64,000 nucleotides of DNA, from positions 1,068,231-1,132,230 of the forward strand of contig OY762444.1 in assembly GCA_963665735.1 (NCBI GenBank), written 5' to 3'. Shown here piece after piece: positions 37,142-57,793 of the stretch; within the stretch, counting starts at the first letter, position 1, and each line of letters begins with the position of its first letter. Under the pieces are notes generated by a model, which made no database searches, was not told the origin of the DNA, and saw only the letters and a program-made list of their open reading frames with translations. The translations under genes and the position numbers were made by a program. This stretch comes from Dehalococcoidia bacterium (GTDB lineage: Bacteria; Chloroflexota; Dehalococcoidia; Lucifugimonadales; UBA3495).

Positions 37142-37872
37142 GCGGCGCCGGAGAAGGAGAAACAACCATGCCGACCGTCACGAAAATAGAAGACTTCCGG
37201 GCGGGACCGGAAACCACCGCCGACGACCTGCTCCATGCCGCTGAACTGATGCTGGATAAGGACCCGATGATGTGGGGACCGGCAAGGACCACCGGGACAT
37301 GGTGGCACGACGGACAGGTCATCCGGCTCCGATACCAGTACACCCTGCGGGACATGATCATAATGCTGAGCGTAAACGCGCCCGTCGATGCAACGGACGA
37401 AGCCCTGGAACGGTTGGAAAGCGCCGAACCCTGGGGCATCAAGAACTTCCGGGACTACGGCATCGAACCCGGGCTGGCAACGGCCCGGGAGTGGATCGCC
37501 CGGGCGCGGGAACAGGGGACCTGCGACACGTCAACCATCGTGAAACACCGGGCAGGGAACGACGCCACCGCCGACCAGGTGCTGGAAGCGGTGGACCGGC
37601 TGCTGGATGAGAACCCCGGTATCTGGCACCCCTTCGACCTGGAGACTTGGTGGCCCGGCAGTGAGAACCGCCGTCACATTCGCCGGTACAGCCTGGCGAC
37701 ATTGATCAACCAGGTGGGGATGACGGCGGCAACTGAGGCAGTGGAAGAAGCCCTGGAAAGGGTGAGGAGAACCGAGCCGCCGGAGGTTTCCGGTCACGAC
37801 CTGAACGACCCTCACCCGGGACCGGAGGCAGCCCGGGAGTGGATCGCCCGGGCCCGGCAACTCAGACAGTAA
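37138..37872 (+). CDS. Hypothetical protein built of two copies of a ~115-aa repeat
   Basis: ATGA overlap with the upstream stop. Both halves share ...TADDLL.A.E..LD..P..W...TWW... and end with EPG/GPEAAREWIARAR. Confidence 0.65.
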   Translation: MSGAGEGETTMPTVTKIEDFRAGPETTADDLLHAAELMLDKDPMMWGPARTTGTWWHDGQVIRLRYQYTLRDMIIMLSVNAPVDATDEALERLESAEPWGIKNFRDYGIEPGLATAREWIARAREQGTCDTSTIVKHRAGNDATADQVLEAVDRLLDENPGIWHPFDLETWWPGSENRRHIRRYSLATLINQVGMTAATEAVEEALERVRRTEPPEVSGHDLNDPHPGPEAAREWIARARQLRQ

Positions 37873-37907
37873 ACCCATCCCGACCAACGACAGAGGAGGC
37901 CCCCGAT

Positions 37908-38264
37908 ATGCCGCCCATTCCCAGAATAAACAAATACCGCGTCGGCCCCGAATCCACCGCCGACGACCTGCTGGAAGCGGTGGAGCGACTGCTGGCCGAC
38001 AACCCCAAGGTCTGGGCCCCGGCCAACTCGACCACGACGTGGGCAGGCGAGGACAATCTCCCTCACCGCCACAACTACAGCATGTCCAGCATCGTCAGCC
38101 AGGTCGGCATGGAAATGTCCGAGGCCGCATTTGAAGAAGCCGTGAAACGTCTGATGGACTGCATACCGCCGGAGATAAACGGCTTCCGGATGGGAGATGC
38201 CCACCCGGGGCCGGAGGTAGCCCGGAACTGGATCGCCCGGGCCCGGCAGGGAGGAAAAATTTGA
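37908..38264 (+). CDS. Hypothetical protein, single copy of the same ~115-aa repeat
   Basis: Internal ATG after GAGGAGG. Shares RVGPESTADDLLEAVERLLADNPKVW and the ending HPGPEVARNWIARARQ. Confidence 0.65.
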   Translation: MPPIPRINKYRVGPESTADDLLEAVERLLADNPKVWAPANSTTTWAGEDNLPHRHNYSMSSIVSQVGMEMSEAAFEEAVKRLMDCIPPEINGFRMGDAHPGPEVARNWIARARQGGKI

Positions 38265-38883: not shown

Positions 38884-40361
38884 ACACCGAAGAATTCCTG
38901 CAAGCCATTGAACCCGGAGAGAAAAAGTGGAACCAACAGGGGAAGGAGAACTTCCCCTTCCGTTTCCTGTACGCCGCCGCCCGTCTCATGGAAGGCGTCA
39001 TCATGGAAACCGCCCACGACTTCACCGAATACAACCGGGACCACCTGGAACGGGACTCCATAGCCCTGGCCAACGTGGTTGCCGGGCGGGTCGCCGACTG
39101 CCGGAATCCGGGGAGTTTTGAACCGGCTGTGAAGTGGGAGATGAGACGGCTCCGGGACCTCCACGGCGGCGACGTCTTCGAAGATTGGCCCTTCGGAACC
39201 CAGCTGTTCGTCCTCGCTGCCGCAATCATCGCCGGCACGGTGTACCGGAAGAGCCGGCAGTACGACCGGTACGACGAGCAGGACCTGCGGCTGGACGGAG
39301 TGCAGCTGGTGGCCCTGATGGCGCTGAACCTGGAGGCCGGGGAGAAGGGAGAACCCGCGGCGGCGAAGAAGAAGTGCAAACCGGCAGACGGGTGCGGGAG
39401 GAACCGGAAGCCCGACCGCCAGGTCGCGGTCAGCCACCGGAACTATTCCCGGATGCAGCGGTTCGCGGTGCCCATGGACGACGACTTCAACAGCACGTTG
39501 TCCAAGATAATGGACTTGGCCGAGGCCGGACACCGCCGGGATGAGGCGAAGGACGGCGGCCCGGAGATGTTCTACGACCTGATGAACCGGCTCACGGGAA
39601 GGACCGACCGGAGGAAGCCGTCGGAGCCGGGGGCTTTTCCCCGGGAGGCCCCGGTCCCGGAAATCCTCTTCCGGGAGATTCCCGACACGGGAGCGCCGAA
39701 GCTGGAAGTGATCACCAAGGAGAACCGGATCCCGGAGATTTCCGCACCGGAAGTTGAAATACCGGAGGAGTCTCCCGGTGACGACCACACCGCCAGCTTT
39801 TCCACTGAGGAACCCGCCGTGGAAGAACAGCCCGCCATGGCAGCAGAACCGGACGTGGGACAGCCCGTCGTGGAAGAACCCGGGGACGTGAACCAACCGG
39901 ACGTGGAACAGCCCGCCACGGCAGCAGAACCCACCGTGGAACAGCCCACCGTGGCAGAAGAACCGGACGTGGAACAGCCCACCGTGGAACAGCCCACCGT
40001 GGCAGAAAAACCCCGGCGGAGGAACAACCCGCCCCCGGAACCCTCCACCCCCCAGAACGACTACCGGCTTCCCATCATGGAGGCCCTCCGGGAACGGGGC
40101 GGCCGGGCTCCCGCCGGCGCCGTCATCGAACTGGTCCACCAGAGAATGGAACAAAGCCTGCATCCCGCCGACGAGGCCAAACTGGGGAACGGACGCCCCC
40201 GGTGGAAGAAGATGGTCGAGTGGGCCGGCAAGGAACTGGTGACGGAAGGAAAACTCAGCGACAAGTCCCCCCGGGGAACCTGGGAACTCACCGCGGCGGG
40301 GTTCAGCGAAGTGGGAGGCTCCCCGGAGCCGGAGTACCAGCTCCGGGAATCCCTGCGGTAG
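38880..40361 (+). CDS. Hypothetical protein with an acidic Pro-rich tandem-repeat region and a C-terminal Mrr_N-like winged helix
   Basis: 493-aa ORF. The C-terminus YRLPIMEALRERGGRAPAGAVIELV...RPRWKKMVEWAGKELVTEGKLSDKSPRGTWELTAAG resembles the N-terminal wHTH of Mrr-type restriction proteins. Confidence 0.7.
   Translation: MNTEEFLQAIEPGEKKWNQQGKENFPFRFLYAAARLMEGVIMETAHDFTEYNRDHLERDSIALANVVAGRVADCRNPGSFEPAVKWEMRRLRDLHGGDVFEDWPFGTQLFVLAAAIIAGTVYRKSRQYDRYDEQDLRLDGVQLVALMALNLEAGEKGEPAAAKKKCKPADGCGRNRKPDRQVAVSHRNYSRMQRFAVPMDDDFNSTLSKIMDLAEAGHRRDEAKDGGPEMFYDLMNRLTGRTDRRKPSEPGAFPREAPVPEILFREIPDTGAPKLEVITKENRIPEISAPEVEIPEESPGDDHTASFSTEEPAVEEQPAMAAEPDVGQPVVEEPGDVNQPDVEQPATAAEPTVEQPTVAEEPDVEQPTVEQPTVAEKPRRRNNPPPEPSTPQNDYRLPIMEALRERGGRAPAGAVIELVHQRMEQSLHPADEAKLGNGRPRWKKMVEWAGKELVTEGKLSDKSPRGTWELTAAGFSEVGGSPEPEYQLRESLR
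39819..40013 (+). repeat. In-frame 15/18-nt tandem repeats
   Basis: Units of the type GTGGAACAGCCCACC and GTGGCAGAAGAACCGGAC encode VEQPT / VAEEPD-type repeats. Confidence 0.7.
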
Positions 40362-42738: not shown

Positions 42739-43395
42739 GTGAACGAGCCGCCGGCCTACCCCCGGACTCCCTGCTGGCCCACGTCGCCCTCCAAGCCGCG
42801 GGGAGACCGCAACACCCGGCACGCCGGGGAATTCCCCGGAGCGGACCTGACCGTCACTGAGAAGCTGGACGGCAGCAGCGTACTGATCCACGAGGGACGG
42901 GTACTCACCCGGGGAGGCGACCCCCACGCTCCCTGGCTGGCCATGGCCCGCAAGCATCACGGCTGGAAGCTCCGGGGACAACCCGGACTGTGCCTCTACG
43001 CCGAGGACATCTACGGGGTTCACAGCATCGCCTACGACCCGGTGCCCGAAGCGCGCACCCTCTACGTCTTCGCCGCCCTGGAGGACGGGCGGTTCCTGTC
43101 TTTTCCCGAAGTGGAGGAGATCGCGGAGCGGTTGGACATCCCGACGGTCCCGGTGCTGGTACGGGCCCGGTTCGACTCATTCGACTCAGTGGAAGAGTTG
43201 GAAGAATGCCTGCGGGAACACCACCGGGAACCCTCCGTCCTGGGGGGAGACCGGGAGGGGGTTGTGGTGAGGCATACCGCCGGGTTCAGCCGGGAGGAAT
43301 TCCACCGGCGGGTATTCAAGAGCGTCCGCGCCGGCCACGTCCAGACGGACGAACACTGGACCCGGAACTGGAAACCCTGCCGGATAGCAAGATGA
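42739..43395 (+). CDS. ATP-dependent RNA ligase-like nucleotidyltransferase (small stand-alone RNA_ligase family type)
   Basis: 218 aa with a GTG start. Motif I is VTEKLDGSS (KxDG). LYAEDIYG and EGVVVRH are consistent with motifs III and IV, and FKSVR with motif V. Confidence 0.75.
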   Translation: MNEPPAYPRTPCWPTSPSKPRGDRNTRHAGEFPGADLTVTEKLDGSSVLIHEGRVLTRGGDPHAPWLAMARKHHGWKLRGQPGLCLYAEDIYGVHSIAYDPVPEARTLYVFAALEDGRFLSFPEVEEIAERLDIPTVPVLVRARFDSFDSVEELEECLREHHREPSVLGGDREGVVVRHTAGFSREEFHRRVFKSVRAGHVQTDEHWTRNWKPCRIAR

Positions 43396-43399
43396 TAAG

Positions 43400-43678
43400 G
43401 TGGAAGTAATGGACCTGAACACCCTGCGGGCGGTGGCCCATTCCTACATCGACCAAGCCATCATCGAAGCCGTTACCGTGGACGACGACGGGGACCCGGC
43501 CGTTCACTTCCAAACGACGGAGGAGTACGAACTCCGGGCATCGAACACCCAGGGAGACCTGATGCAACTCAAGGCCGTCACCTTCGTCGCCGACGTGGTG
43601 AACGGCATCAACGGCGGCGAGATTGCCCCCGACGTCTGGCACGAATGCCGGTGCAGCAGCAGCCTGGAGAGTGGATAG
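43400..43678 (+). CDS. Hypothetical protein
   Basis: 92-aa ORF. Confidence 0.5.
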   Translation: MEVMDLNTLRAVAHSYIDQAIIEAVTVDDDGDPAVHFQTTEEYELRASNTQGDLMQLKAVTFVADVVNGINGGEIAPDVWHECRCSSSLESG

Positions 43679-43779
43679 CCGGGCCCGTCTCAAGGGATTG
43701 GCCAACATTGTACGGGGTCGCACGTCACCCATCTCCGGCCAATGAACACCGGAAAACGACCGTCGGCAAAGGAGGACCC

Positions 43780-44871
43780 ATGAACCACCTGATCCAAGAC
43801 CTATCCGCCCTGGCGGACCGGATAACCGCCGCGACGGAGCGTCTTTGACCTCCCCGCCAGGGAAAACACCATCGCCCGGATGGAATCCGAAGCCGCCCGC
43901 CCCGGTTACTGGGACGACCCTTGCCAGGCCCAGGCCCGGACCAAGCAACTCGAACGCCTGAAGGAAACTGCAACCATCTGGAACAACCTGCGTTCCCAAT
44001 CCCGGGAACTCCTGGAACTGGCCCGGATGGCCCTGGAAGAAGAGGATGCTACCCTGGACTCCGAACTGGCCGCCCGGGGCGAATCCCTGGCCGCCGACCT
44101 GGAACGGGAGGAGATCAACCTGGCCCTCTCGGGTACCACGGACGACCGCCCCGCCATCCTGTCCATCCAGGCCGGGACCGGCGGCGCCGACGCCCACGAC
44201 TGGGCCGGAATGCTGCTACGGATGTACCTGCTGTGGGCCGAGGCCAATGACCGCAGCGTCGAGACCCTGGACCTCGCACCCGGGGACAGGGGAGGAATCC
44301 GAAATGCCTCTCTGGAGATCGGCGGCAGGTTCGCCCACGGGTTCCTCCGAGCCGAGCGCGGCGTCCACCGACTGGTCCGAATCTCACCCTACAGCCCGAA
44401 AGGCGCCCGCCACACCTCCTTCGCCCGGGTGGAAGTCATCCCCGCCGCGCCGGAGGAAGAGTCCGAAATCGAAATCCGATCCGAGGACCTGAAGATGGAC
44501 CTTTTCCGCTCCGGGGGCCCCGGCGGCCAGAACGTCCAGAAGGTGAACTCCGCCGTCCGTCTGACCCACCTGCCCACCGGCGTCATCGCCGTTTGCCGGA
44601 CCGAGCGCTCCCAATACCAGAACCGGGAGTACGCCCTGCGGGTTCTGCGGGCCCGCCTGGAGGAATGTCGAAGAATCCGCCAGGCAGCGGAACGGGCCGA
44701 ACTGAAGGGTGAAACGCCCCCGCCGAATGGGGACGGCAGATCCGCAGCTACTTCCTGCATCCCCGGCAAATGGTGAAAGACCACCGAACCGGGTTCAGCA
44801 GCGCCAACGCCCAGGACGTGCTGGACGGGAACATCCAGGACTTCATTCACGCGTTTCTCACCAACCAATGA
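43780..44871 (+). CDS. prfB: Peptide chain release factor 2 (programmed +1 frameshift, plus an unexpected -1 frame break near the 3' end)
   Basis: ATG at 43780 after AAAGGAGGA. Frame 1 gives MNHLIQDLSALADRITAATERL and then TGA. The +1 frame continues with DLPARENTIARMESEAARPGYWDDP...GGPGGQNVQ (GGQ motif). The canonical C-terminus EWGRQIRSYFLHPRQMVKDHRTG...DFIHAFLTNQ-stop (ending at 44871) is reached only by a further shift at the C5 run 44717-44721. Confidence 0.85.
43836..43849 (+). promoter_or_regulatory. prfB programmed +1 ribosomal frameshift site
   Basis: GGAG-CGT-CTT-TGA-C. An SD-like GGAG lies 3 nt upstream of the classic CUU UGA C slippery/stop context. Confidence 0.85.
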
Positions 44872-44927
44872 TTGAAAGGCGGTTTCGACCCCAACCCGGG
44901 ACGCCGGCAATTGAACACCGGAGAAGC

Positions 44928-45215
44928 ATGACGAAAGTAATCAGGGTATCCGACCAGACTTGGGACAGAATAACAAAGACGGTGGGTGAAGACGGCACCG
45001 CCGACGAAAGGATCAGCCGCCTGCTGGACCTGGCGGGCCGGCCGCCCGCGCCCCAATTCGACTACCGCAAAGACCTGCTGTCCCAGAGGTATGCCCTCCA
45101 GGACATGATCAACCGGTGCCCCGAGGAAGCGGTCATCGACCGGGGCAGCCTGCAGTACGCGCTGCAAAAGGTCAACGAGAAAATCGCCCGGCTGGACCGG
45201 GAATCATGCCCCTGA
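44928..45215 (+). CDS. Hypothetical protein
   Basis: Internal ATG. 95 aa. Confidence 0.5.
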   Translation: MTKVIRVSDQTWDRITKTVGEDGTADERISRLLDLAGRPPAPQFDYRKDLLSQRYALQDMINRCPEEAVIDRGSLQYALQKVNEKIARLDRESCP

Positions 45216-45586
45216 CCCCCTACCCCTGCCCCCGGTGCGACCGCCGGTTCGAGAGCCGCCGGGGCCTGGACCAGCACATCCGGCAGGGCCACCACGCCTG
45301 CCCCGACTGCCGGCCAGAGGCCGAGCGCTGCCCCCACCACGACCAGGACCCGTACACCGAGTACCTGAAGGTGTACTACCACCAAAGGAACCGGAGACCC
45401 GTAACCCTGGAAGAAGCCAGGGTGAACGAAAAGGGGTGGATCATCGGCTGGATCGTCAACGGCAGGACCGCCGACCCCACCTACGATATTCTCATCATCG
45501 ACCCGGGTTTGGTGAAGAAGACCGAGACTTGGGTTCTGAACCTGTTCTTCGGCGACCTGGAGAAGAAGAACGAATCGCAGAAATGA
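45206..45586 (+). CDS. Small protein with an N-terminal C2H2-type zinc finger
   Basis: YPCPRCDRRFESRRGLDQHIRQGH (C-x2-C-x12-H-x4-H). Overlaps the upstream gene end. Confidence 0.6.
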   Translation: MPLTPYPCPRCDRRFESRRGLDQHIRQGHHACPDCRPEAERCPHHDQDPYTEYLKVYYHQRNRRPVTLEEARVNEKGWIIGWIVNGRTADPTYDILIIDPGLVKKTETWVLNLFFGDLEKKNESQK

Positions 45587-45876
45587 ACCGGGGAACTTCC
45601 GGCATCGCTCCACATCCACCCCCTCCACACCCACACACCGAACCCTATCACACCGTCATTCCACCGGCCCGGTTCACCACCAAGGGAAACGCCGCGCCGG
45701 CGGGCGAAGGCGGGAAGAATCTCCCGCGGCGAGACGAACCTGCTAATCCGGGGCAGGGACCGATTTTCCTAAACTTTCCTTAACTGACACCGCCTCTATT
45801 GGGGCCGCCCCCTTGCGGTGAAGAAGACGGGGCCGGCCCATGAGGCCCCGCGCCGAAAGGAGAGGAAACCCCGCCC

Positions 45877-47253
45877 ATGCTCACCATATCCACCACCCAC
45901 CAGCCCGCCACCGACCTGGGATACCTGCTGCACAAGCACCCCGACCGAGTCCAGGAGTTCCCCCTGGCCTTCGGCAAGGCCCGGGTCCACTACCCCCAGG
46001 CCTCCGAGGAAAGCTGCCAGGCCGTCCTCACCCTGGACGTCGACCCGGTGCGTCTCACCCCCAAGGGCAACCGGGACGCCCCCTCCCACCTGCTCCAGGA
46101 CTACGTCAACGACCGCCCCTACGTCGCCGCCAGCCACCTGGCCGTGGCCCTGAACAACGTCTACCGCACCGCCATGACCGGCCGCTGCGACGCCAAGCCG
46201 GAACTGGCCAACACCCCCATCCCGCTGCGAGCGGAGATAAAGTCCCTGCCGGCCCGCCGCGGGGAAGAAATACCCCGCCGCATCCTGGAACCCCTGGGAT
46301 ACCAGGTGGAGATGGAACCCCTGCCCCTGGACCCGGATTTCCCCATGTGGGGCGACGCCGGGATTCACAACCTGGTCGTGGAATCGAAGTCCCACACCCT
46401 GGCCGAGCTGCTCCGTCACCTCTACGTCCTGCTCCCCGTACTGGACAACAAGAAGCACTACTGGATCGGCAGGGACGAGATGGAGAAGCTGGAACGCCAC
46501 GGGGAGGGCTGGCTGGACCAACACCCGGAACGGGAGATGATCAGCAAACGCTACCTGGGATTCCGGGACAGTCTCACCAGGGAGTTCCTGGCCCGGCACC
46601 CCGGGGACGAAGAGACCCCCGCCGACGAAGAGACCTTGGAAGATGGAACCGTCGGCGAGAAGCGGGAATCCCTGCACCAGCTGAGAATCCGGGCCATCAT
46701 TGAACAATTGAAACGCGCCGGCGCCCACAGCGTCCTGGACCTGGGCTGCGGCGAGGGACGGCTCATCGAGGCCCTGCTGAAAGAGGACGCGTTCCGGAAA
46801 ATCACCGGCCTGGAGGTCTCCCAGGGAACCATCGGACGCGCTCACCGGAGAATCGGCAAGGAGGAACGGGTGACCCTGCTCCACGGCTCCCTGCTGTTCC
46901 CCGACCCCCGGCTGGATGGCCACGACGCCGCCGTTCTGATGGAGGTGGTCGAGCACGTGGACCCAGAGAAGCTGGACCTGGTGGAAATGAACGTATTCGG
47001 GCAGGCCAAACCCCGCGCCGTCATCGCCACCACCCCCAACCGGGAGTGGAACGCCGTCATACCCAACATGGAGACCCGGTTCCGCCACCGGGACCACCGC
47101 TTCGAGTGGGACCGGGAGGAGTTCCGGGAATGGGCCGAAGGAGTCGCCGCAAGGAACGGCTACGCGGCGGAAATCCTGCCGGTGGGCGAGGAGGACCCGG
47201 AACACGGGCCGCCGACGCAAATGGCGGTATTCACGAAAAAGGAGACCGCATGA
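45877..47253 (+). CDS. hen1: Bacterial Hen1 RNA 3'-terminal 2'-O-methyltransferase
   Basis: 458 aa. N-terminus MLTISTTHQPATDLGYLLHKHPDR is typical of bacterial Hen1. SAM motif VLDLGCGEGRLI. C-terminal HRDHRFEWDREEFREW. Confidence 0.88.
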   Translation: MLTISTTHQPATDLGYLLHKHPDRVQEFPLAFGKARVHYPQASEESCQAVLTLDVDPVRLTPKGNRDAPSHLLQDYVNDRPYVAASHLAVALNNVYRTAMTGRCDAKPELANTPIPLRAEIKSLPARRGEEIPRRILEPLGYQVEMEPLPLDPDFPMWGDAGIHNLVVESKSHTLAELLRHLYVLLPVLDNKKHYWIGRDEMEKLERHGEGWLDQHPEREMISKRYLGFRDSLTREFLARHPGDEETPADEETLEDGTVGEKRESLHQLRIRAIIEQLKRAGAHSVLDLGCGEGRLIEALLKEDAFRKITGLEVSQGTIGRAHRRIGKEERVTLLHGSLLFPDPRLDGHDAAVLMEVVEHVDPEKLDLVEMNVFGQAKPRAVIATTPNREWNAVIPNMETRFRHRDHRFEWDREEFREWAEGVAARNGYAAEILPVGEEDPEHGPPTQMAVFTKKETA

Positions 47254-47645
47254 CTCAACGGACGGAAGGCAACGCGGTGATAACACGGCACCTGAACCTG
47301 CTCCTGTCCCGGTTGGCCAAGGCCCGGTCCAACCTGATGGAATCGGCGGAGCGGTACAGCCCCAACAACGTGGAGCTTCACTGCCGGCACTTCGATCCCT
47401 GGCTCTTTTCCAAGGAGTTCGAGCAATGGGCCGAAATACACCGGAAGCCCCGGGAAGAATTCAACCGGACGAATCTCTACAACGCCCTGGCATGGGTCAG
47501 GATGAAGACCGGAATGGACACCGAGATGCCGACCCCGGGCGGAATGGCATTGGCCGCCATGTACTGCAACGACCCCACCGACCTGTACGTCGACCCCATC
47601 AGGGCATTGACCCTGGACCTATGCGAAGAATCCGGCAACCGGTAA
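47250..47645 (+). CDS. Hypothetical protein translationally coupled to hen1
   Basis: ATGA overlap with the hen1 stop. 131 aa. No motif recognised. Confidence 0.6.
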   Translation: MTQRTEGNAVITRHLNLLLSRLAKARSNLMESAERYSPNNVELHCRHFDPWLFSKEFEQWAEIHRKPREEFNRTNLYNALAWVRMKTGMDTEMPTPGGMALAAMYCNDPTDLYVDPIRALTLDLCEESGNR

Positions 47646-47667
47646 CTCTCAATCCAAAGAGAACAGA

Positions 47668-50217
47668 GTGAAAGAAAACATGGAAATACGAATCCCCGAA
47701 TTCTGCCTGGCGCTGATGATGGGACCCACCGGGGCCGGCAAGAGCCACTTCGCCCAAAAGTGGTTCAACACCACCGAGATTCTCTCCTCGGACAACTGCC
47801 GCGCCCTGGTCTCCGACGACCCCGCCAACCGGGAGTGCAGCGACGACGCCTTCGCCGTCCTCCACGCCGTCCTGGACAAGCGTCTGAAGCGCCGCCGCCT
47901 CACCCTGGTGGACGCCACCAACCTCAGGCAGGAGGACCGGAAGACCCTCCAGGAAATCGCCCGCGAACACGACTGCCAGTCGGTCATCTTCGCCATCGAC
48001 ACCCCCGTAAAAGTCTGCCTGGAACGGAACGCCGCCCGGGAGGGCAGGAAATCCCCGGAACGGGTGGTCCAGGCCCACTGCCGCCGGATGAGGATGTCCC
48101 TCCGGGACACCAAAAAGGAACGGTCCCGGGTGTACCAGCTGAAACCCCAGGAGGCCAAAGACGCCGTCATCCGGCGGGTGAAGATGCGGATCGACCTCCG
48201 GGATCAGCCCGGCCCCTTCGACCTCATCGGCGACGTCCACGGCTGCCAAGAGGAACTCGTGCAACTCCTGGACAAGCTGGGCTACCGGGACGCGGACGGA
48301 ACCTTCATCCACCCGGAGGAGCGACGCGCCGTGTTCCTGGGCGACCTGGTGGACCGGGGCCCGGCCAGCGACCAAGTCCTGGAGACCGCCATGAACATGG
48401 TGGAAGCCGGCTCCGCCCTGGCCGTCATGGGCAACCACGACGACAAGCTGGAACGCAAGCTCAAGGGCAACCCGGTGGAGGTCAGCCACGGGCTGGGACG
48501 GACCCTGGAACAGCTGGACAAGAGGGACGAAGAATTCAAAGAGAGGGTGAAGAAATTCCTGCACCGGCTGCCCGAACAGTACCTCCTGGACGAGGGACGG
48601 CTGGCGGTGGCCCACGCCGGCATCCTGGAGAAGTACCAAGGCCGGACCAGCCGACGGGTGCGGGACTTCTGCCTCTACGGGCAGACCACCGGCGAGAGCG
48701 ACGAGTACGGCCTGCCGGTGCGCCAGGACTGGGCCCGGGAATACACCGGCGAGACCCTGGTGGCCTACGGCCACGTCGCCGTGGACGAGGCCCGCTGGGT
48801 GGGCAACACCATCTGCCTGGACACCGGCTGCGTCTTCGGCGGCAGCCTCACCGCCCTGCGCTACCCCGAAAGGGAACTGGTCTCCGTGCCGGCCCGGGAG
48901 ACTTACTACGAAGGCATCAAGCCCTGGGAGAAGACGGCGGAGGAGGCCCGGGAGCGGGCGACGGAACGATTCGAGCCGGGCCACATCCCCCTGGCCGGGA
49001 TAACCGGCGACCTGAAGATAGACACCGCCACCCACGGCCCGGTGGAAGTTCCCGCCAACCGGGTCAACCACGCGTTGGAACCCATGAGCCGGTACGCGGT
49101 GGACCCCAGGTGGCTCATCTACCTGCCCCCCACCATATCTCCCACCCAGACTTCCCGGTTGCCTGGAATGATGGAACATCCCGACGAGGCCTTCCACCAG
49201 TACCGGGAAGACGGCGTGGCCAAGGTGATCTGCCAGGAGAAACACATGGGTTCCCGGGGCATCGTCATCGTGGGCCGCAGCCCGGAGGTCATCCGGGAGA
49301 AGTTCGGAGTGGATTCTCCCGCCGGGGGCGTATGCTACACCCGCACCGGACGCCGGTTTTTCCCGCCGGAGTTGGAAAAGAAATTCCTGGACCGCACCCG
49401 CCAAGCCCTGTATGCCGCCGGGCTGTGGGATGAGCTCGACACCGGTTGGATGTTGCTGGACTGCGAGATCATGCCCTGGAGCCTGAAGGCCCGGGGGCTG
49501 CTGCAGCAGACCTACGCGCCGGTGGCCGCCGCGGCGCTGAACACCCTGGAAGCCGCCCGGGAATCCCTGGAGCAGGCCCAAGCCCGGGGCATGGACGTGG
49601 AGTCCGCCCTGGAGGACAACGGGAAACGGCTGGATGCGGTGCGGGGATACCGGCAGGCCTACCGCGAGTACTGCTGGGAAACTTCCGAAGAACTTGAAGG
49701 CGTCAGGGTGGCGCCCTTCATGGCCCTGGCCGGGGAGCAGGGAGTCAACCACCGGGACCACCTCTGGCAGATGAGCGTGGGGAGCCGGCTGGCCCGCGTG
49801 GACCCCAAGCTGTTCCAGGCCACCTGCCACGTGGTTGTGGAGACGGGGAACGAGGCCCAGGAAATGGCCGCCCTGGAATGGTGGCAGGAGATCACCTGCC
49901 GGGGCGGTGAGGGAATGGTGGTCAAACCGTTGGAACTCCTGCCCCGGGGCAGCCGGGACCGGATACAGCCGGCGGTGAAGGTCCGGGGCAAGGAGTACCT
50001 GCGGCTGATCTACGGCCCCGAGTACGACCTGCCCGGCAACCTGGAGCGTATGCGGGGCCGGAACCTGCGGGCGCGGCGGGAGAACGCCGTGAAGGAGTTC
50101 GCCCTGGGACTGGAGGGAATCCGGCGGTTCACCGCTGGGGAGTCTCCCGCCCGGGTGTACCAGTGCGCCATGGGAGTGGCCGGGCTGGAATCGGAACCCG
50201 GCGACCCCCGGCTGTAG
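47668..50217 (+). CDS. pnkp: Polynucleotide kinase-phosphatase with a C-terminal ligase domain (Pnkp)
   Basis: 849 aa. Kinase P-loop GPTGAGKSHF. Metallophosphatase motifs GDVHGC, GDLVDRGP and GNHD. Ligase-type lysine motif QEKHMGSRG. Confidence 0.9.
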   Translation: MKENMEIRIPEFCLALMMGPTGAGKSHFAQKWFNTTEILSSDNCRALVSDDPANRECSDDAFAVLHAVLDKRLKRRRLTLVDATNLRQEDRKTLQEIAREHDCQSVIFAIDTPVKVCLERNAAREGRKSPERVVQAHCRRMRMSLRDTKKERSRVYQLKPQEAKDAVIRRVKMRIDLRDQPGPFDLIGDVHGCQEELVQLLDKLGYRDADGTFIHPEERRAVFLGDLVDRGPASDQVLETAMNMVEAGSALAVMGNHDDKLERKLKGNPVEVSHGLGRTLEQLDKRDEEFKERVKKFLHRLPEQYLLDEGRLAVAHAGILEKYQGRTSRRVRDFCLYGQTTGESDEYGLPVRQDWAREYTGETLVAYGHVAVDEARWVGNTICLDTGCVFGGSLTALRYPERELVSVPARETYYEGIKPWEKTAEEARERATERFEPGHIPLAGITGDLKIDTATHGPVEVPANRVNHALEPMSRYAVDPRWLIYLPPTISPTQTSRLPGMMEHPDEAFHQYREDGVAKVICQEKHMGSRGIVIVGRSPEVIREKFGVDSPAGGVCYTRTGRRFFPPELEKKFLDRTRQALYAAGLWDELDTGWMLLDCEIMPWSLKARGLLQQTYAPVAAAALNTLEAARESLEQAQARGMDVESALEDNGKRLDAVRGYRQAYREYCWETSEELEGVRVAPFMALAGEQGVNHRDHLWQMSVGSRLARVDPKLFQATCHVVVETGNEAQEMAALEWWQEITCRGGEGMVVKPLELLPRGSRDRIQPAVKVRGKEYLRLIYGPEYDLPGNLERMRGRNLRARRENAVKEFALGLEGIRRFTAGESPARVYQCAMGVAGLESEPGDPRL

Positions 50218-50242: not shown

Positions 50243-50277
50243 TGGATAGTGGCTAGTGGCCAGTAATTGGTGACCCA
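50243..50277. repeat. Heptanucleotide tandem repeat, locus d
   Basis: TGGATAG TGGCTAG TGGCCAG TAATTGG TGACCCA, 26 nt after the pnkp stop. Confidence 0.6.
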
Positions 50278-50320
50278 TCCCCAACTATCCGATACCCACC
50301 ATCCACCCAGGAGGAAGGGA

Positions 50321-50698
50321 ATGACCAGCATCCACCAACTGACGAAGAATCTCCGGGACAAAACCGACGAGGAAGTTCTGGAGGGAATCGCCGACATCAT
50401 CGAAGCCGACCCCACCCGGTGGACCCAGGGCGTCAATTTCATGATGGAGGACGGAACGTGCCTCACCAACCCCAACCTGGCCCACTCCGCCTGCGCCGTG
50501 GGGTTCATCGACGCGGTATACCCCATCGAAATCCACTGGGAACGGAACTGGAACCTGGTCTCGATGATGCAGGAGAACATACCCAAAAAATACGGGACCC
50601 CCGGGACCCGGTACAACCTGACCAAGTACAACGACACCCGCCGTGACGCAGCGGAGGTCATCGCCTGGTTCCGCAGGGCCGCAGCCCAGGCCGGATGA
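50321..50698 (+). CDS. Paralogue family P member 1 (CA-x-G / YND motif family)
   Basis: Internal ATG after GGAGGAAGGG. Motifs EEVLEGIADIIEADPTRW, AHSACAVGF and TKYNDTRRDAAEVIAWFRRAA. Confidence 0.7.
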   Translation: MTSIHQLTKNLRDKTDEEVLEGIADIIEADPTRWTQGVNFMMEDGTCLTNPNLAHSACAVGFIDAVYPIEIHWERNWNLVSMMQENIPKKYGTPGTRYNLTKYNDTRRDAAEVIAWFRRAAAQAG

Positions 50699-51153
50699 CC
50701 GGCAACAGGGAGAGAACAATGGAAACGGAGAGCATATCGGGACTCACCCGGAACCTGCCCGGCAAGCCCGGCGCGGAGATACTGGCAGGAATCGCCGACA
50801 TCATCGAGTCCAACCCCCGGAGGTGGACCACCGGCAATCTTTTCAGGGAGAAGCGCGGAGCCGCCACCGACAACCCGGAACTGGCCCACCAGGCCTGCGC
50901 CGTCGGGTTCACCGACGCGGTGTACGACAACCAAATCCACGGCGATGAGAACCGGGAACTGGCCCGGCATCTCCTGAGCGCAGTTCCAACGGAATCGCCG
51001 GACCGGGTCCGGCAATACCCCTGGAAACAGGTCCGGCACCTGGTAACCCGCTACAACGATTCCCTGGAAAACGCCGGGCAGGCCGTTGAATGGTTCCGGC
51101 GAGCCGCAGAAACGGCCCGGAACCGGGAACAGGCGACCGGCAGCCGTGGATAG
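50695..51153 (+). CDS. Paralogue family P member 2
   Basis: ATGA overlap with the upstream stop. Motifs AEILAGIADIIESNPRRW, AHQACAVGF and TRYNDSLENAGQAVEWFRRAA. Confidence 0.7.
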   Translation: MTGNRERTMETESISGLTRNLPGKPGAEILAGIADIIESNPRRWTTGNLFREKRGAATDNPELAHQACAVGFTDAVYDNQIHGDENRELARHLLSAVPTESPDRVRQYPWKQVRHLVTRYNDSLENAGQAVEWFRRAAETARNREQATGSRG

Positions 51154-51182
51154 GACGAAACCCCGGGATCAGGAGGCAGACA

Positions 51183-51599
51183 ATGACCGGCAGGAACATC
51201 CGTGAACTGGCCGCTACCCTCAGGGGAAAACCCGACGCCGACGTACTGGAGGGAATCGCCGCCATCATCGAGGACGATCCCGACAGGTGGGGAAGGGGGT
51301 TCGTGTTCAAGTCCGAGGAAGGCGAGTCCACCTACGACGCGAGCCGGGCCCATTCAGCCTGCGCCGTCGGGTTCGCCGACCTGGTATACCCCCCGGACGT
51401 CTTACCGGAGGAAAACCGGGAGTTGACCGGCAGGCTGCTGGAACCCATAGCGCCGAAACAAGAAGGACGTCAGTCCCGCTACAGCGCGATCAAGTACAAC
51501 GATACCCGACGGGACGTGGCGGAGATCATCGCCTGGTTCCGAAAAGCGGCGGAAATAGCCCGGCAGGAACAAACGGAACCCCCGGATGGGACTTGGTGA
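51183..51599 (+). CDS. Paralogue family P member 3
   Basis: Motifs ADVLEGIAAIIEDDPDRW, AHSACAVGF and IKYNDTRRDVAEIIAWFRKAA. Confidence 0.7.
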   Translation: MTGRNIRELAATLRGKPDADVLEGIAAIIEDDPDRWGRGFVFKSEEGESTYDASRAHSACAVGFADLVYPPDVLPEENRELTGRLLEPIAPKQEGRQSRYSAIKYNDTRRDVAEIIAWFRKAAEIARQEQTEPPDGTW

Positions 51600-51832
51600 A
51601 GACCCCCCTGTACCACGTCTGGGCGCTGCTGGACCACGACACCCTGAAACGGCTGGCCAGCCGGCCCCACGACCCGACCCCGGCGGCGTGGACGTCGCGG
51701 TCGTCGGCCCGCAGTTGGGCCGAGAAAAGGCTGGCCCTGACCGGCTATAAGATCCTGCGCTGCAACCACCGGGACTGCGCCATCTGCCAGGCCGCCGCAG
51801 AAGCCTGGAACATCGATGTCAGTGAAAGGTAG
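51596..51832 (+). CDS. Hypothetical small protein
   Basis: GTGA overlap with the upstream stop. 78 aa. Confidence 0.45.
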   Translation: MKTPLYHVWALLDHDTLKRLASRPHDPTPAAWTSRSSARSWAEKRLALTGYKILRCNHRDCAICQAAAEAWNIDVSER

Positions 51833-51841
51833 CCGGCGACC

Positions 51842-52045
51842 GTGGAGAATGTCCGAATGCCAGCAGGAACTCACAGCAAAGCCGAATGCCCCGCCTGTGG
51901 ACGGGAGATAGCCTACAAGTCCAAGTATTCCGTCCAGATCCGAGAACACCAGCCGCCCAAGGGTAAGCCGCTCAACGAACGGGGGACCTGTCCCGGCTCT
52001 TCCCGCAAGATTTACGCGCACATGAGGAGGCGCGAGCATACTTGA
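51842..52045 (+). CDS. Small zinc-ribbon protein
   Basis: 67 aa. Contains CPACG...CPGS. Confidence 0.45.
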   Translation: MENVRMPAGTHSKAECPACGREIAYKSKYSVQIREHQPPKGKPLNERGTCPGSSRKIYAHMRRREHT

Positions 52046-52080
52046 AACGACCGCCCGGGATTGAAAGGCTTTCCGCCCAC

Positions 52081-52115
52081 CCAGGTACCAGTCACCGGCC
52101 ACCGTCCACCGAACA
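52081..52115. repeat. Heptanucleotide tandem repeat, locus e (divergent unit)
   Basis: CCAGGTA CCAGTCA CCGGCCA CCGTCCA CCGAACA, directly upstream of the 52128 gene. Confidence 0.45.
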
Positions 52116-52127
52116 CCGGAGGAGAGA

Positions 52128-52706
52128 ATGGGATCCCGCGCCCACATCGGAAAGATACACCCCGACGGCCAAGTGGAGTACGTCTACCTGGGCCACGGCT
52201 GCTACCCCGATGACGCCGGCATCATCCTGCTGGAGAACTACCGGGAAGAAGAACAAGCCGATGCCCTGATCCGGGGAGGCTCCATCGTCAACCTGGGGCC
52301 CGACGAGAAACGCACCGGACGCTACCACCTGACCCACTGGGACGACTGGGAAGATTCCGCCCCCGTCGTCATGCAGGGAGGCAGCGAGGCCTTCTTCGGA
52401 ACCCTGAACATCCCCGGCCCCGAGTGGCTCTACGCCTGGACTCCCGACGGCTGGCTGACCGCGCCGGCGGACTGCCACCCCCCGGACGGCTGGTGGAAGA
52501 ACCTGGCCGTCATGTCCCCCCAGGAGTACCAGGACTGGTTCGACCACAACCAACAGCCGGAATGGGTGGAGTGGCGGGAACGGGCCCGGGAAAAACAGCG
52601 GCCCCGGCCGTTGATCCACGTCATCACTCAGTACGTCCGGGAGAAGGCGAAACGGAAGCTCCGGAAGGAAAAAACCCAGACGGCGCTCGACGTCATCGGC
52701 TGGTGA
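52128..52706 (+). CDS. Hypothetical protein
   Basis: 192-aa ORF after GGAGGAGAG. Confidence 0.65.
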   Translation: MGSRAHIGKIHPDGQVEYVYLGHGCYPDDAGIILLENYREEEQADALIRGGSIVNLGPDEKRTGRYHLTHWDDWEDSAPVVMQGGSEAFFGTLNIPGPEWLYAWTPDGWLTAPADCHPPDGWWKNLAVMSPQEYQDWFDHNQQPEWVEWRERAREKQRPRPLIHVITQYVREKAKRKLRKEKTQTALDVIGW

Positions 52707-52733
52707 GCCCGGCACAGGAAAGGAGCAACCCGG

Positions 52734-52928
52734 ATGAAAGTAAGAGAGTTGAAAGAAGTCCTGGACGACTTCGACCCCGAAATGGAAGTCGCCGTCGGGG
52801 TCAGGGAAGGCGGCAGGGAAGTCCCCTACGGCTTCAGCGAGGATGACATCTACGAGTTGGATTTTGCCTGGGACGGCGAACGGGAACGCCTGCTGGCCAT
52901 AGCGTGCCCCGACCTCATGTCCCACTGA
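52734..52928 (+). CDS. Hypothetical small protein
   Basis: 64-aa ORF after AGGAGC. Confidence 0.5.
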   Translation: MKVRELKEVLDDFDPEMEVAVGVREGGREVPYGFSEDDIYELDFAWDGERERLLAIACPDLMSH

Positions 52929-52948
52929 CAATTCACGGAGAAAGGAAC

Positions 52949-53647
52949 ATGACCACCTACCCCAGCCTAGATGCCTACTACCGGGAGAATCCCGGGGGAA
53001 GACAAAACAGCCCCGAGGCCGACTACGGCGTCCACTGGACCATGCCCGGGGAGAGGACCCGCCAACGGGTCTCCTACGTGATGAACACCGGCGAGATCTA
53101 CGCCGCCAGTCCCAACGGACCGGTGACCGTCCTGGCGACCTTTCCCCCCGACCCCGGCGCGGGGCCCATGGATGTATGGTACAAGAACCTGGACCGCCAC
53201 CTGGACGGCTGGGCCAGCCGCTGCGCCCGGCCCGGCGGGATGAACTGGCTGATTCAAAGGCTGAACGAGAGTCCCGGAGAAATTGAAGTCTCCCACCTCT
53301 TCGGGAACGCCGGCCCCAACGGCCATGAGACGGCCCTCTGCGGAGCCAGGGACGGCCGGCAGTACCTGGCCAGGGAACTGGAGGAGAGCCGGAAGCGAAG
53401 AATATCCTGCGAACGGTGCACGGAACTGGACGCGGAGAACCATCACCAGAACTGGGAATTCGAGTACCGGGCGATCACCCGCGAGGACGATGAATTCCTG
53501 GTCTGCCGGTTCTGCGGGAAATTGGAACGGGACCACGACCCCGGCGGCTGGCTGGGAACGCCCCGCGACCCGGGAATCGCCGCCACCTGGACCTGCCGGG
53601 AGTGCGGGCTCCGGGGATACGACCCGGTCACCCTGATGCGGGTATAG
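52949..53647 (+). CDS. Hypothetical protein with CxxC pairs
   Basis: Internal ATG after GGAGAAAGG. Contains CERC...CRFCG...CRECG. Confidence 0.6.
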   Translation: MTTYPSLDAYYRENPGGRQNSPEADYGVHWTMPGERTRQRVSYVMNTGEIYAASPNGPVTVLATFPPDPGAGPMDVWYKNLDRHLDGWASRCARPGGMNWLIQRLNESPGEIEVSHLFGNAGPNGHETALCGARDGRQYLARELEESRKRRISCERCTELDAENHHQNWEFEYRAITREDDEFLVCRFCGKLERDHDPGGWLGTPRDPGIAATWTCRECGLRGYDPVTLMRV

Positions 53648-53659
53648 GAGAGAAAGCCG

Positions 53660-54529
53660 GTGAAACCCGACAAACTGACGGAAATCACAATTGAAAACTT
53701 CCGCAGCATCGACCGTCTGGAACTCCGGGACCTGGGAGACATCAACGTCGTCAACACCGGGAACGACGTCGGAAATACCCACGTCCTGGACGCCGTCCAG
53801 CTGTACGCCGGCCGGGGCAGCCCCCAGGTCATCCGGGAGATCCTGCTGCGGGACGACGAGTTCCTGAACGGAACCTACGACGGCCCCGTCCTACCGGACC
53901 GGGACGCCCTGTTCCACGACAGGGACAACGGGGCGGAAATTAGCATCTCCGGCCAGGACTGCCGGCTGGCAATACGGGTCGACGAACAGGACCTGGAACA
54001 GAACACTCTCACCGTCTCAACGCAGGGGCGGAACCGCCGGGTGAGCCTGGAGAACCCGTACGGGTTCCGGTTCCACCCGGGAGGGGAGAGGGATGCAACA
54101 ACCTGCATCCGGGTGGGACCCCGGGAGCCGGACAACGACACCCTGGTTGGACTCTACTACCCCATAGCCCTGACCGACGGGGAGGAACGGGTTGCGGAAT
54201 TCATCACCAGGGTCGCCGGGACATGGGTGGACCGTATCGGCAGCGTCGGGGACCAGGAACGGGCGCGGGTCATGGTGCGAACGCCGGGGAGCCGGACCCC
54301 CGTGCCGCTGCGCAGCCTGGGACCGGAAACGGTGCAGGCGGCCCACGCGGCGATGGCCCTGGAGAACGCCCGGGGAGGCATCCTGCTGCTGGACCAGGCC
54401 CACACGAGAATCCGACCGGAGGCCCGGGAAATAATGTGGCGGAGCATCGCCCTGGGCATCCGGGGCGAGGCGCAGGTATTTACCACCACCGACCCGGACA
54501 AGGTTCACCGGGCGCCGGCAGCAGAGTAG
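53660..54529 (+). CDS. AAA_15/ABC-ATPase-like protein with degenerate Walker A and B motifs (pseudo-ATPase)
   Basis: The N-terminus LTEITIENFRSIDRLELRDLGDINVVNTGNDVGNTHVLDAVQL follows the family pattern, but GK[ST] is replaced by GNT. The Walker B region reads ILLLDQAH (DQ instead of DE). The family's C-terminal TTHS motif reads TTTD. Confidence 0.6.
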   Translation: MKPDKLTEITIENFRSIDRLELRDLGDINVVNTGNDVGNTHVLDAVQLYAGRGSPQVIREILLRDDEFLNGTYDGPVLPDRDALFHDRDNGAEISISGQDCRLAIRVDEQDLEQNTLTVSTQGRNRRVSLENPYGFRFHPGGERDATTCIRVGPREPDNDTLVGLYYPIALTDGEERVAEFITRVAGTWVDRIGSVGDQERARVMVRTPGSRTPVPLRSLGPETVQAAHAAMALENARGGILLLDQAHTRIRPEAREIMWRSIALGIRGEAQVFTTTDPDKVHRAPAAE

Positions 54530-54566
54530 AAAAGAGCGCAGCCGTACGCGGAGAGAGGCAGGAAAG

Positions 54567-54980
54567 ATGACCCTGACCATCCTGGAGAAACGGGGGGCGA
54601 TGAACCCCGGAACGGCGGAAGGGATTCTCTCCGAAATATCCGCCGCCGTGCGCCGCAACCCCGGATCCTGGAACCGCTACTATACGTTCGTCAACCACAA
54701 GGGCAAGGTATTCACCCCCTGGGAAATCCGGTGGCCGGGCTACGCCCGCCGGAACGCCGCCAGCGCCTGCGCCCGGGGCTGGCTCCGGCTGGCCGGGGAG
54801 AAAGCCCCGGAGGAAGAGAGACGCCGGGCCGGGCAGGCCCTGGAACAAGCCATCCCGGCCGAACTCAGGAGGCAGGGAGTGGACGGCTACAACGACTCCC
54901 TGGAAAGCGCGGAAGAATTCACAGCCTGGGTGGAACGGGCCCTGGCCATACTGGAAAACGGAGGAGACAAGCAGGCATGA
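54567..54980 (+). CDS. Paralogue family P member 4
   Basis: Motifs AEGILSEISAAVRRNPGSW, ASACARGW and DGYNDSLESAEEFTAWVERA. Confidence 0.65.
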   Translation: MTLTILEKRGAMNPGTAEGILSEISAAVRRNPGSWNRYYTFVNHKGKVFTPWEIRWPGYARRNAASACARGWLRLAGEKAPEEERRRAGQALEQAIPAELRRQGVDGYNDSLESAEEFTAWVERALAILENGGDKQA

Positions 54981-55405
54981 CCACGCTGATGGAATCAATC
55001 AGGGAAATCAACGCCGGGGAATTCCCCCGGGACGCCCGGGGCATACTGGAAATGGCCGCCGATACCGTGGAAACTCATCCCGACACCTGGACCATCGGGG
55101 AGACCTTCCGCCGTTCCGACGGCAGCCCCATGGCCGCCAACCCCGCCAACGCCCCCTACGAAGAGAGTCACTTCAACGAAGCCGGTTCCGCCTGCGCCGT
55201 GGGATGGATCCAGTTCCTCGGCCACCAGGCCGGCCGGCTGGCCCGGCGCCGGGCGGACCAAGCCCTGCAACAGGCGATACCCCCTCCCTTCCAGGCCCAC
55301 GGAGTGACCGGCTACAACGACCAGCTGGAATACCCGGAACAGTTCGTGCAGTGGGCCCGGAGGACGGTCGCCATGATTGACGCCGAGGCGGAGGAGAAGG
55401 AATGA
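54977..55405 (+). CDS. Paralogue family P member 5
   Basis: ATGA overlap with the upstream stop. Motifs ARGILEMAADTVETHPDTW, GSACAVGW and TGYNDQLEYPEQFVQWARRT. Confidence 0.65.
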   Translation: MTTLMESIREINAGEFPRDARGILEMAADTVETHPDTWTIGETFRRSDGSPMAANPANAPYEESHFNEAGSACAVGWIQFLGHQAGRLARRRADQALQQAIPPPFQAHGVTGYNDQLEYPEQFVQWARRTVAMIDAEAEEKE

Positions 55406-55767
55406 AGGTTGAAGAACTGCAGCAGCTGGCCCAAGCCAACGACCGGGTGAGGGAACTGCTGGAACAAGGCTGGACCCAGGACGTCTTCGCCCGCCGGGAG
55501 GACGGAACCGCCGTCAATCCCAATAGCCCCGAGGCGGTGAGCTTCTGCATCTCCGGCGGAGTGCATCGCGCCGCCCGGGAAATCGTCCCCGAGGAGGACC
55601 TGTCCGACCTCCTCACCTGGCACCTGAAGTACATCGAGGACGCCCTGGGTTCAAGGAACCCGGTCATCTACAACGATGACCCGGAACGGACGCAGGAAGA
55701 CGTCATCGACCTGCTGGACCGGGTGGGACGGCGCATCAGGAAGGACGTGGAGACCGGCAGGAGATGA
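55402..55767 (+). CDS. Paralogue family P member 6 (divergent)
   Basis: ATGA overlap with the upstream stop. Motifs GWTQDVFAR, AVSFCISGG and VIYNDDPERTQEDVIDLLDR. Confidence 0.6.
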   Translation: MKVEELQQLAQANDRVRELLEQGWTQDVFARREDGTAVNPNSPEAVSFCISGGVHRAAREIVPEEDLSDLLTWHLKYIEDALGSRNPVIYNDDPERTQEDVIDLLDRVGRRIRKDVETGRR

Positions 55768-56126: not shown

Positions 56127-56130
56127 AGAA

Positions 56131-57760: not shown

Positions 57761-57793
57761 ACCCCAACCAAAGGGAAAAGGAAGAAAAAAACG

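Follow-up and report, generated by a model that had tools for sequence, protein, structure and literature searches.

A predicted Hen1-Pnkp RNA-repair operon with an accessory RNA ligase and a displaced release factor gene in a conflict island of a Chloroflexota genome

Introduction

Why should prfB, the gene for release factor 2 (RF2), lie between genes for two RNA-sealing enzymes? This arrangement occurs on the + strand of a 64,000-nucleotide stretch of DNA (hereafter the window), which belongs to a 3,922,041-bp contig of a Dehalococcoidia-related member of the Chloroflexota. Within 7.5 kb, genes for a stand-alone RNA ligase, RF2, Hen1 and Pnkp follow one another in one orientation. An earlier note, made from the sequence alone, read these genes as suggesting a composite module that may recognise stalled or damaged ribosomes or tRNAs and repair the RNA, analogous but not identical to the prfH-rtcB2 pair. 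The mechanism of the Pnkp/Hen1 family, by which broken RNA is healed, 2'-O-methylated and sealed, is established (PMC3675462, PMC4411300), and PrfH and RtcB2 of E. coli are encoded in a ribosome rescue and repair operon (PMC9304027; the coupling of PrfH to RtcB is also described in PMC6514570). A canonical RF2 acting as the partner of Pnkp/Hen1 would, if true, mean that this rescue-then-repair logic is not limited to the specialised PrfH but also involves a canonical release factor. The answer that we reach is a different one, which we hold to be probable though well short of certain: the window contains a canonical Pnkp/Hen1 operon and an accessory minimal ligase within a conflict island, and prfB is there by lineage-specific accident and not as a dedicated partner.

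Results

Hen1 and Pnkp form a predicted RNA-repair operon

Both repair proteins proved complete. Hen1 joins an N-terminal Pnkp-ligase-activating domain (Hen1_L, E 1.5e-101) to a C-terminal methyltransferase domain dependent on S-adenosylmethionine (SAM), shows the motifs VLDLGCGEG and MEVVEH in its translation, and reaches 598 bits with TIGR04074, an NCBIfam equivalog whose cut-off is 340. Pnkp is trifunctional by its domains: firstly, a kinase (AAA_33) with the P-loop GPTGAGKS; secondly, a binuclear metallophosphoesterase (Metallophos) with GDVHG, GDLVDRG and GNHD; thirdly, an adenylyltransferase-type ligase (PNKP_ligase, E 4.8e-152) with the motif-I lysine in KHMGS. It scores 1119 bits against the equivalog TIGR04075 (cut-off 750). 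Because the alignment with this model begins at residue 5 and a public collection holds an 845-aa gene call, translation probably starts at ATG 47680 (845 aa) rather than at GTG 47668. The two enzymes are thus as the earlier note had described them, save for this probable shift of the Pnkp start.

The two genes are co-oriented with hen1 first, an order that we found in 69 of the 70 loci in which both genes were seen. Our comparison on the Hen1 side drew on 84 loci, namely the two closest homologues in the European Nucleotide Archive (ENA), two viral contigs and 80 metagenome contigs; a Hen1 match was obtained by tblastn in 83 of them, and 36 extend 3 kb or more beyond hen1 on its upstream side. 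Where both genes were seen the gap between them is mostly 0–50 nt. The distance in the window is 426 nt (to ATG 47680), because a coupled reading frame of 131 codons, orf131, is inserted at the place where hen1 and pnkp usually abut. Its start overlaps the hen1 stop in the tetranucleotide ATGA (47250–47253), with GGAG nine bases upstream, which bears out the coupling that had been proposed for it. The product is a predicted helical ORFan: the self-match was all that came back from a word-indexed search of 5.8 billion proteins and from HMMER run in full against 1.84 billion representatives, and a single-sequence AlphaFold model was too poor for use (pLDDT 47). L023, which together with L022 holds the closest Hen1 homologues, has a 93-aa reading frame at its hen1-pnkp junction, unrelated to orf131. 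To judge by domain content and gene order, Hen1-Pnkp is a bona fide, canonical RNA-repair operon that appears to be split by a lineage-specific ORFan.

From the intact domains and motifs we infer the mechanism by which this operon would act. A ribotoxin would cut tRNA or other RNA and leave 2',3'-cyclic-phosphate and 5'-OH ends, which the phosphoesterase and kinase modules of Pnkp would heal. Hen1 would then methylate the 2'-OH of the 3'-terminal nucleotide, and the ligase module of Pnkp, activated by the N-terminal domain of Hen1, would seal the break; the sealed, methylated junction could not be re-cut.

A minimal RNA ligase recurs near hen1

The stand-alone ligase at the head of the cluster, also predicted in the earlier note, is a protein of 218 aa that matches PF09414 (RNA_ligase; E 4.5e-21, 76 bits against a cut-off of 27) over positions 3–171 of the 171 in the profile. 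It carries the KxDG element of nucleotidyltransferase motif I as EKLDG, and matches PHROG 34045 and 24030 ("RNA ligase"). At this length it has no second domain, neither the C-terminal domain of Rnl2 nor the N-terminal OB fold of Rnl5. Sequence and profile searches of the PDB gave chance-level matches only, and a single-sequence AlphaFold model (pLDDT 40) was too poor for use. Homologues, 30–44% identical, are found in jumbo and huge phage genomes.

Two other Hen1 loci carry a ligase of this kind. In L023 a PF09414 ligase, 48–50% identical to that of the window, lies 7 kb upstream of hen1, and in the viral contig L024 a ligase of the same subfamily, with an added PHA02142 OB fold, lies 6 kb upstream. 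This recurrence lends modest support to a theme of countermeasures against RNA damage, and likewise modest support to a recurring link between Hen1 and a minimal ligase of phage type. The stand-alone enzyme probably seals a different class of breaks than Pnkp/Hen1 does.

On L024, a 48-kb IMG/VR contig predicted to be viral, positions 2790–13063 hold the genes for the OB-fold and PF09414 ligase, for Hen1 and, just downstream of hen1, for a nucleotidyltransferase of the RlaP family (PF10127); pnkp was not detected near this hen1.

prfB encodes an apparently ordinary RF2 with two changes of frame

The gene between the ligase and hen1 had been described as a full-length but divergent RF2. Its outer limits hold, but translation in three frames revealed two frame changes in place of a single intact reading frame. 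The first is the expected one: the initial 22 codons (MNH...ERL) run up to CTT TGA C (43843–43849), the classical autoregulatory +1 frameshift site, preceded by a Shine-Dalgarno-like GGAG (43836–43839) and a 3-nt spacer, and the resulting ERL|DL junction is common to annotated relatives. The body of the protein then continues in the +1 frame as far as 44776, and the conserved C-terminus (WGRQIRSY...VKDHRTG...VLDG...TNQ*) is back in the first frame. A second shift is therefore needed, and it falls at a run of five C (44717–44721), where one added C lets the sequence align with eleven relatives free of gaps; none of the relatives aligned has the break. The ~50 codons downstream of it are conserved, contain no stop and reach the stop codon where it is expected. 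The public gene call consists of the 298-aa middle reading frame alone. Since those 50 or so codons are fully conserved, the break is either very recent or an artefact, that is, either an inactivating mutation or a homopolymer error of assembly. A programmed –1 frameshift at the run was considered and rejected, as a heptamer of the form X XXY YYZ is missing there and the corresponding peptide is encoded in relatives with the frame unshifted.

The reconstructed protein, 363 aa with PCRF and RF-1 domains, passes the prfB model TIGR00020 (413 bits, cut-off 370) and fails the PrfH model TIGR03072 (87.5 bits, cut-off 166.65). It has the GPGGQ motif, and its SPF-type motif reads SPY, as it also does in P0002, P0003, P0010, P0028 and P0044. 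Identity to the RF2s of Chloroflexota and Dehalococcoidia is 54–65%, so that the protein is divergent only to a moderate degree. Accelerated evolution was rejected on the root-to-tip distance in a rooted neighbour-joining tree, 0.644 for the window RF2 as compared to 0.58–0.625 for the others; the 27 unique substitutions that it carries at otherwise invariant columns follow from its placement outside the sampled clade, to which it is sister. Taken as reconstructed, RF2 looks like an ordinary termination factor of the stop-codon type, regulating its own synthesis.

In the loci compared, prfB adjoins repair genes only in the window

To follow prfB in its nearest relatives we compared six loci with 58–65% RF2 identity (L001, L002, L003, L106, L107 and L108). 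In all six, prfB sits in one housekeeping block, with thrS divergent upstream and ribBA-ribE-ribD(-dcd) convergent downstream. No hen1, pnkp, ligase or small reading frame of our cluster lies within 8–10 kb in any of the six, and the thrS / prfB / ribBA-ribE-ribD synteny was not found in the window. From the Hen1 side the result was the same: tblastn detected no RF2 in the 84 other Hen1 loci, the two most similar gene trains and the 36 loci with 3 kb or more of upstream sequence included, and a profile search with the RF2 alignment against all six-frame reading frames of these loci found no protein of the release factor family.

The adjacency of RF2 to Hen1/Pnkp, which the earlier note proposed to look for in other Hen1 neighbourhoods, is thus conserved in no relative. 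This is one half of what that note had named as pointing to chance juxtaposition, the other being that this prfB is the only RF2 gene of the genome. Among the 120 best RF2 matches, which reach down to 54% identity, there was no second RF2 from the same contig. A search of the literature for second prfB copies within genomic islands brought up nothing relevant.

These data leave RF2 as a partner of Pnkp/Hen1 unsupported. Most simply, its position would be that of a relocated native gene or of a captured, possibly decaying copy. Three points weigh against explaining the adjacency as an accident. Firstly, the displacement of prfB from a neighbourhood kept in six of six relatives itself calls for explanation; secondly, a translation factor stands between two RNA-sealing enzymes with no terminator detected there, in a scan that performed at chance level; thirdly, conservation was judged on one other ligase-carrying train (L023) and on metagenome contigs that are mostly short. 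Whatever its origin, a translation gene of the essential type that lies outside its conserved neighbourhood and within a defence and repair island is of interest.

Rsr and a Y-RNA-like array accompany the operon

An rsr gene (17333–18967), the orthologue of Ro60 with TROVE and vWA_Ro60 domains, lies 24 kb upstream of the cluster. Directly 3' of it, at 18971–19630, is a Y-RNA-like array with five copies of the motif CGGGTCGA..GGGTTAT and with tRNA-like modules GTAGCTCAGTGG... and GGGTTCGA.TCCC. Five Y RNAs had been claimed here; the five motif copies fit that count, but none reaches the Rfam gathering score, the three YrlA matches in the array staying at 35–40 bits against a gathering score of 69. 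Over the window as a whole, neither ARAGORN nor Rfam at its gathering thresholds gave a match.

In two unrelated metagenome contigs rsr stands immediately upstream of hen1-pnkp (L093, 8294–13979; L101, 1–6232), and the Rsr proteins encoded there are 47–50% identical. This suggests a recurrent linkage of Rsr to Hen1-Pnkp beyond the known linkage of rsr to rtcBA. The extra ligase and Rsr with its Y-like RNAs fit a theme of countermeasures against RNA damage, to which the recurrences lend modest support.

Outside the window, the same contig encodes a second Hen1 (P0126), 82% identical to that of the window, and a second Rsr (P0124), 94% identical. On the strength of these two paralogues, a related island appears to be present in the genome at least twice.

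Small reading frames and gaps within the cluster

The remaining features of the cluster are listed in Table 1. The two small proteins noted earlier between RF2 and hen1, of 95 and 126 aa, coincide with gene calls. The C2H2 finger ascribed to one of them stands as a CxxC...HxxxxH motif in the 126-aa protein, but its Pfam match is below threshold (20.7 bits against 25.2, E 5e-4), and the protein also gives a weak zinc-ribbon match, again below threshold. None of the small reading frames of the cluster has an ArfA-like or other family match in Pfam or NCBIfam, and none recurs in the loci fetched; the same searches were negative for the acidic ORFan orf92 behind the ligase. The 290-nt non-coding interval before hen1, the largest in the cluster, is a possible separate promoter region. 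It shows no significant RNA fold (z = 0.61), and a consensus scan of the cluster for promoters and terminators, at chance level, found none.

Table 1. Features of the window, in order of position (coordinates from the first nucleotide of the window)
Feature	Position	Strand	Evidence or remark
Defence genes: HKD plus Snf2 helicase, type IIG restriction-modification enzyme, TIR-STAND, SIR2	193–7427, 26653–29154, 60478–61548		Type IIG enzyme, E 3e-304
rsr with Y-RNA-like, tRNA-like repeat array	17333–19630	+	TROVE, vWA_Ro60; YrlA below threshold
Fic	20062–20784	+	
Radical-SAM protein, PA0069/Rv2578c type	35498–36508	+	
Mrr_N protein, 493 aa	38880–40361		C-terminal Mrr_N domain
Minimal RNA-ligase-like nucleotidyltransferase, ATP-dependent	42739–43395	+	PF09414, EKLDG
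orf92, acidic ORFan	43400–43678	+	ORF list; begins 4 nt past ligase stop
prfB (RF2), with GGAG, +1 site CTT TGA C and extra break at C5 run	43780–44871	+	PCRF, RF-1, TIGR00020
orf95, small ORFan	44928–45215	+	GGAG in front; exact public gene call; no family match
126-aa protein, N-terminal zinc-finger-like CxxC...HxxxxH	45206–45586	+	Gene call; 10-nt overlap with orf95
Non-coding gap 5' of hen1, 290 nt	45587–45876	.	Sequence
hen1, 3'-terminal RNA ribose 2'-O-methyltransferase	45877–47253	+	Hen1_L, TIGR04074
orf131	47250–47645	+	131 aa; ATGA overlap with hen1; no homologue
pnkp, trifunctional (alternative GTG start 47668)	47680–50217	+	AAA_33, Metallophos, PNKP_ligase, TIGR04075
DUF6197 paralogues, at least six, directly downstream of pnkp	50267–58195		Starts 50267, 50695, 51090, 54567, 55402, 57794

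The surrounding island

About 82% of the called coding length in the window is on the + strand, and most of the products have no family match. The genes for Rsr, Fic and the radical-SAM protein share this strand with the cluster, as the earlier note had observed. Several defence genes are present (Table 1), among them one whose TIR-STAND product combines a ThsB-like TIR domain with PDC-S60; these genes identify the region as an island of defence and conflict. Two of the defence segments (26653–29154 and 60478–61548) are low in GC, at about 47–48% as compared to about 64%.

The coding strands of the window show an excess of A over T, with a skew of +0.15 to +0.35. In the mostly one-strand trains of ORFans that run through the window (about 14000–60000) and through L022 and L023, this skew reaches +0.2 to +0.38, and L022 and L023 have an excess of C over G as well. 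Only hen1, pnkp and the ligase are common to the three trains. The combination of A>T skew with a one-strand layout was not seen in at least 20 other Hen1 loci or in the prfB loci of the relatives. Such trains, mostly on one strand, rich in ORFans and strongly skewed, would form a distinctive class of region in Chloroflexota-like genomes. Against a skew specific to the island stands gmk, a housekeeping gene at the window edge, which has the same A>T skew; the skew may therefore be genome-wide.

Repeats of several kinds occur along the train. Directly 3' of the Fic gene, at 20765–20991, three tandem units of 41–81 nt contain a hairpin CCGGAAGTAACCGC.AGGTTACTGACGGGAAC, and could be a small structured RNA or an array of binding sites. 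The Mrr_N protein contains an acidic tandem peptide repeat, EQP(T/A)V...EEPDV, encoded by repeats of 33/48 nt (39825–40019). Two copies of a 300-nt unit, 69% identical, lie at 14585–15705, and an ORFan family is present in three or four copies (37138–38264 and 25387). Between defence genes, 7541–13787 encodes large unannotated proteins.

Discussion

Besides the reading given above we weighed several rival accounts. One, which we regard as tentative and rather unlikely, takes the island gene to be a decaying duplicate: the break at the C5 run would be real and would remove the C-terminal ~50 residues (domain 4), and a functional prfB would exist elsewhere, probably at a thrS/rib locus. The break is after all in the deposited sequence, where the public call is a 298-aa fragment, and it is absent from the aligned relatives; the gene sits in an accessory island, away from its conserved context, and the genome does hold paralogues of other island genes. 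The full conservation of the ~50 codons past the break argues the other way, as it makes the break very recent or an artefact. Single-base insertions and deletions in homopolymers are a typical error of assembly. The 120 best matches, down to 54% identity, included no second RF2 from this contig; the branch of the island RF2 is only slightly longer than those of its relatives.

An alternative concerns the gene train as a whole, which may be, or may derive from, a mobile element of an integrative or phage-like kind, with RF2, the ligase, Hen1-Pnkp and Rsr as cargo that sustains translation under attack from a host or competitor, comparable to the release factor and RNA ligase genes of huge phages. 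Several observations agree with this view: the one-strand train of ORFans and the tandem DUF6197 paralogues, the second Hen1 and second Rsr in the genome, the similar trains around the closest Hen1 homologues, the ligase homologues in jumbo and huge phages, the viral contig with Hen1, ligase and RlaP genes (L024), and RF2 homologues, 35–41% identical, on viral contigs of 400 kb. Yet the window proteins that were scanned included no integrase, relaxase, structural or packaging protein, the 7.5-kb cluster has no DNA similarity to known phages, and GenBank phage records gave no match to Hen1. The gmk gene at the window edge weakens the compositional argument, given that its skew is possibly that of the whole genome. 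Nor do the viral RF2 loci bring the repair genes with them: three IMG/VR contigs of 400–446 kb (L110, L114 and L115) encode full-length RF2 homologues, 35–37% identical, with no hen1, pnkp or window-type ligase within 10 kb. We consider a mobile origin unlikely on balance.

The composite module of the earlier note, refined here into a rescue-and-repair system, would have the island RF2 free peptides from ribosomes stalled by cleaved RNA (tRNA, mRNA or rRNA), perhaps with orf92, orf95 or the zinc-finger protein as a recruiter comparable to ArfA or BrfA, after which Pnkp/Hen1 and the ligase would repair that RNA. Its appeal lies in the layout, with genes on the same strand, short gaps and no terminator detected across the cluster, and in the move of prfB from a conserved housekeeping context into an RNA-repair neighbourhood. 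There is also precedent, since PrfH-RtcB joins a release factor to RNA repair (PMC9304027, PMC6514570), and canonical RF2 is used in ArfA-dependent rescue according to references cited in PMC9304027. What speaks against it is that no gene of the release factor family occurs in the 84 other Hen1 loci, that the six prfB loci of relatives lack repair genes, and that RF2 passes the prfB model and shows no PrfH-like remodelling. Further, its small neighbours are ORFans with neither an ArfA-like match nor recurrence, the gene is frame-broken as sequenced, and 290 nt separate the RF2 block from hen1. We therefore judge this system improbable, and RF2 as an analogue of the PrfH of prfH-rtcB2 is not borne out. 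The RNA-repair theme of the proposed module does survive, in the Hen1-Pnkp operon, in the ligases of L023 and L024 and in the rsr genes of L093 and L101; it is the membership of RF2 that is not supported. In its most novel form the idea would make the self-regulated RF2 of the island an accessory backup factor for termination and rescue. A neighbouring ORFan product, perhaps the zinc-finger protein, which has a basic stretch, might bring it to ribosomes blocked by RNA that a ribotoxin has cleaved, after the manner of ArfA/BrfA, and Pnkp/Hen1 and the extra ligase would then repair that RNA. If true, a conflict island that is possibly mobile would carry a counterpart of PrfH-RtcB built on a full-length RF2, but this we hold to be very improbable.

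Comparison with known systems

A canonical Pnkp/Hen1 operon with an accessory ligase in a conflict island, the reading that we prefer, can be placed beside five known arrangements. PrfH-RtcB2 of E. coli resembles the window in that a GGQ gene of the release factor family lies near RNA-sealing enzymes in a conflict-type neighbourhood. PrfH needs no stop codon: in place of the codon-recognition region it has a remodelled domain that recognises damaged ribosomes and is specific for the cut of colicin-E3 type (PMC9304027). By contrast, the window RF2 is full-length (363 aa as compared to ~200 aa for PrfH), has a PCRF domain and an autoregulatory frameshift, and fails the PrfH model. The sealing enzymes differ too: those of the window are ATP-dependent 5'-phosphate ligases (PF09414 and PNKP_ligase) and not RtcB, of which no domain was found in the window proteins scanned, and the pairing with a release factor is unconserved.

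The prfB of the window resembles the housekeeping prfB of Dehalococcoidia-related Chloroflexota, with which it shares 54–65% identity, the ERL|DL frameshift, GGQ, the SPY/SPF motif and the same length. It departs from these genes in lying outside the thrS / prfB / ribBA-ribE-ribD-dcd block, in its extra frame break and in branching as sister to the sampled clade.

The RNA-repair gene sets of jumbo and huge phages (PMC7824862) have in common with the window minimal Rnl-type ligase homologues (30–44%), a TROVE/Ro protein together with its tRNA-like partner, and translation factors carried as cargo for conflict. The window differs in its setting, within a 3.92-Mb contig and with no phage hallmark gene detected, and in its Hen1, which is absent from GenBank phages.

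In the three-protein Pnkp1-Rnl-Hen1 complex, Rnl corresponds to the ligase domain of Pnkp and partners a healing enzyme that has none of its own, and the pnkp1-rnl operon is distant from hen1 (PMC4411300). That genome type and ours both have a separate ligase gene alongside Hen1 and a Pnkp-like healing enzyme. We rejected this assignment for the window, since the PNKP_ligase domain (KHMGS) is still part of its Pnkp and its stand-alone ligase is a PF09414 protein.

The closest match is the known Pnkp/Hen1 system itself: a trifunctional Pnkp, a Hen1 with a ligase-activating N-terminus, and the order hen1 to pnkp. What sets the window apart from it is the insertion of orf131, the setting in an ORFan island and a second copy in the same genome, with a Hen1 that is 82% identical.

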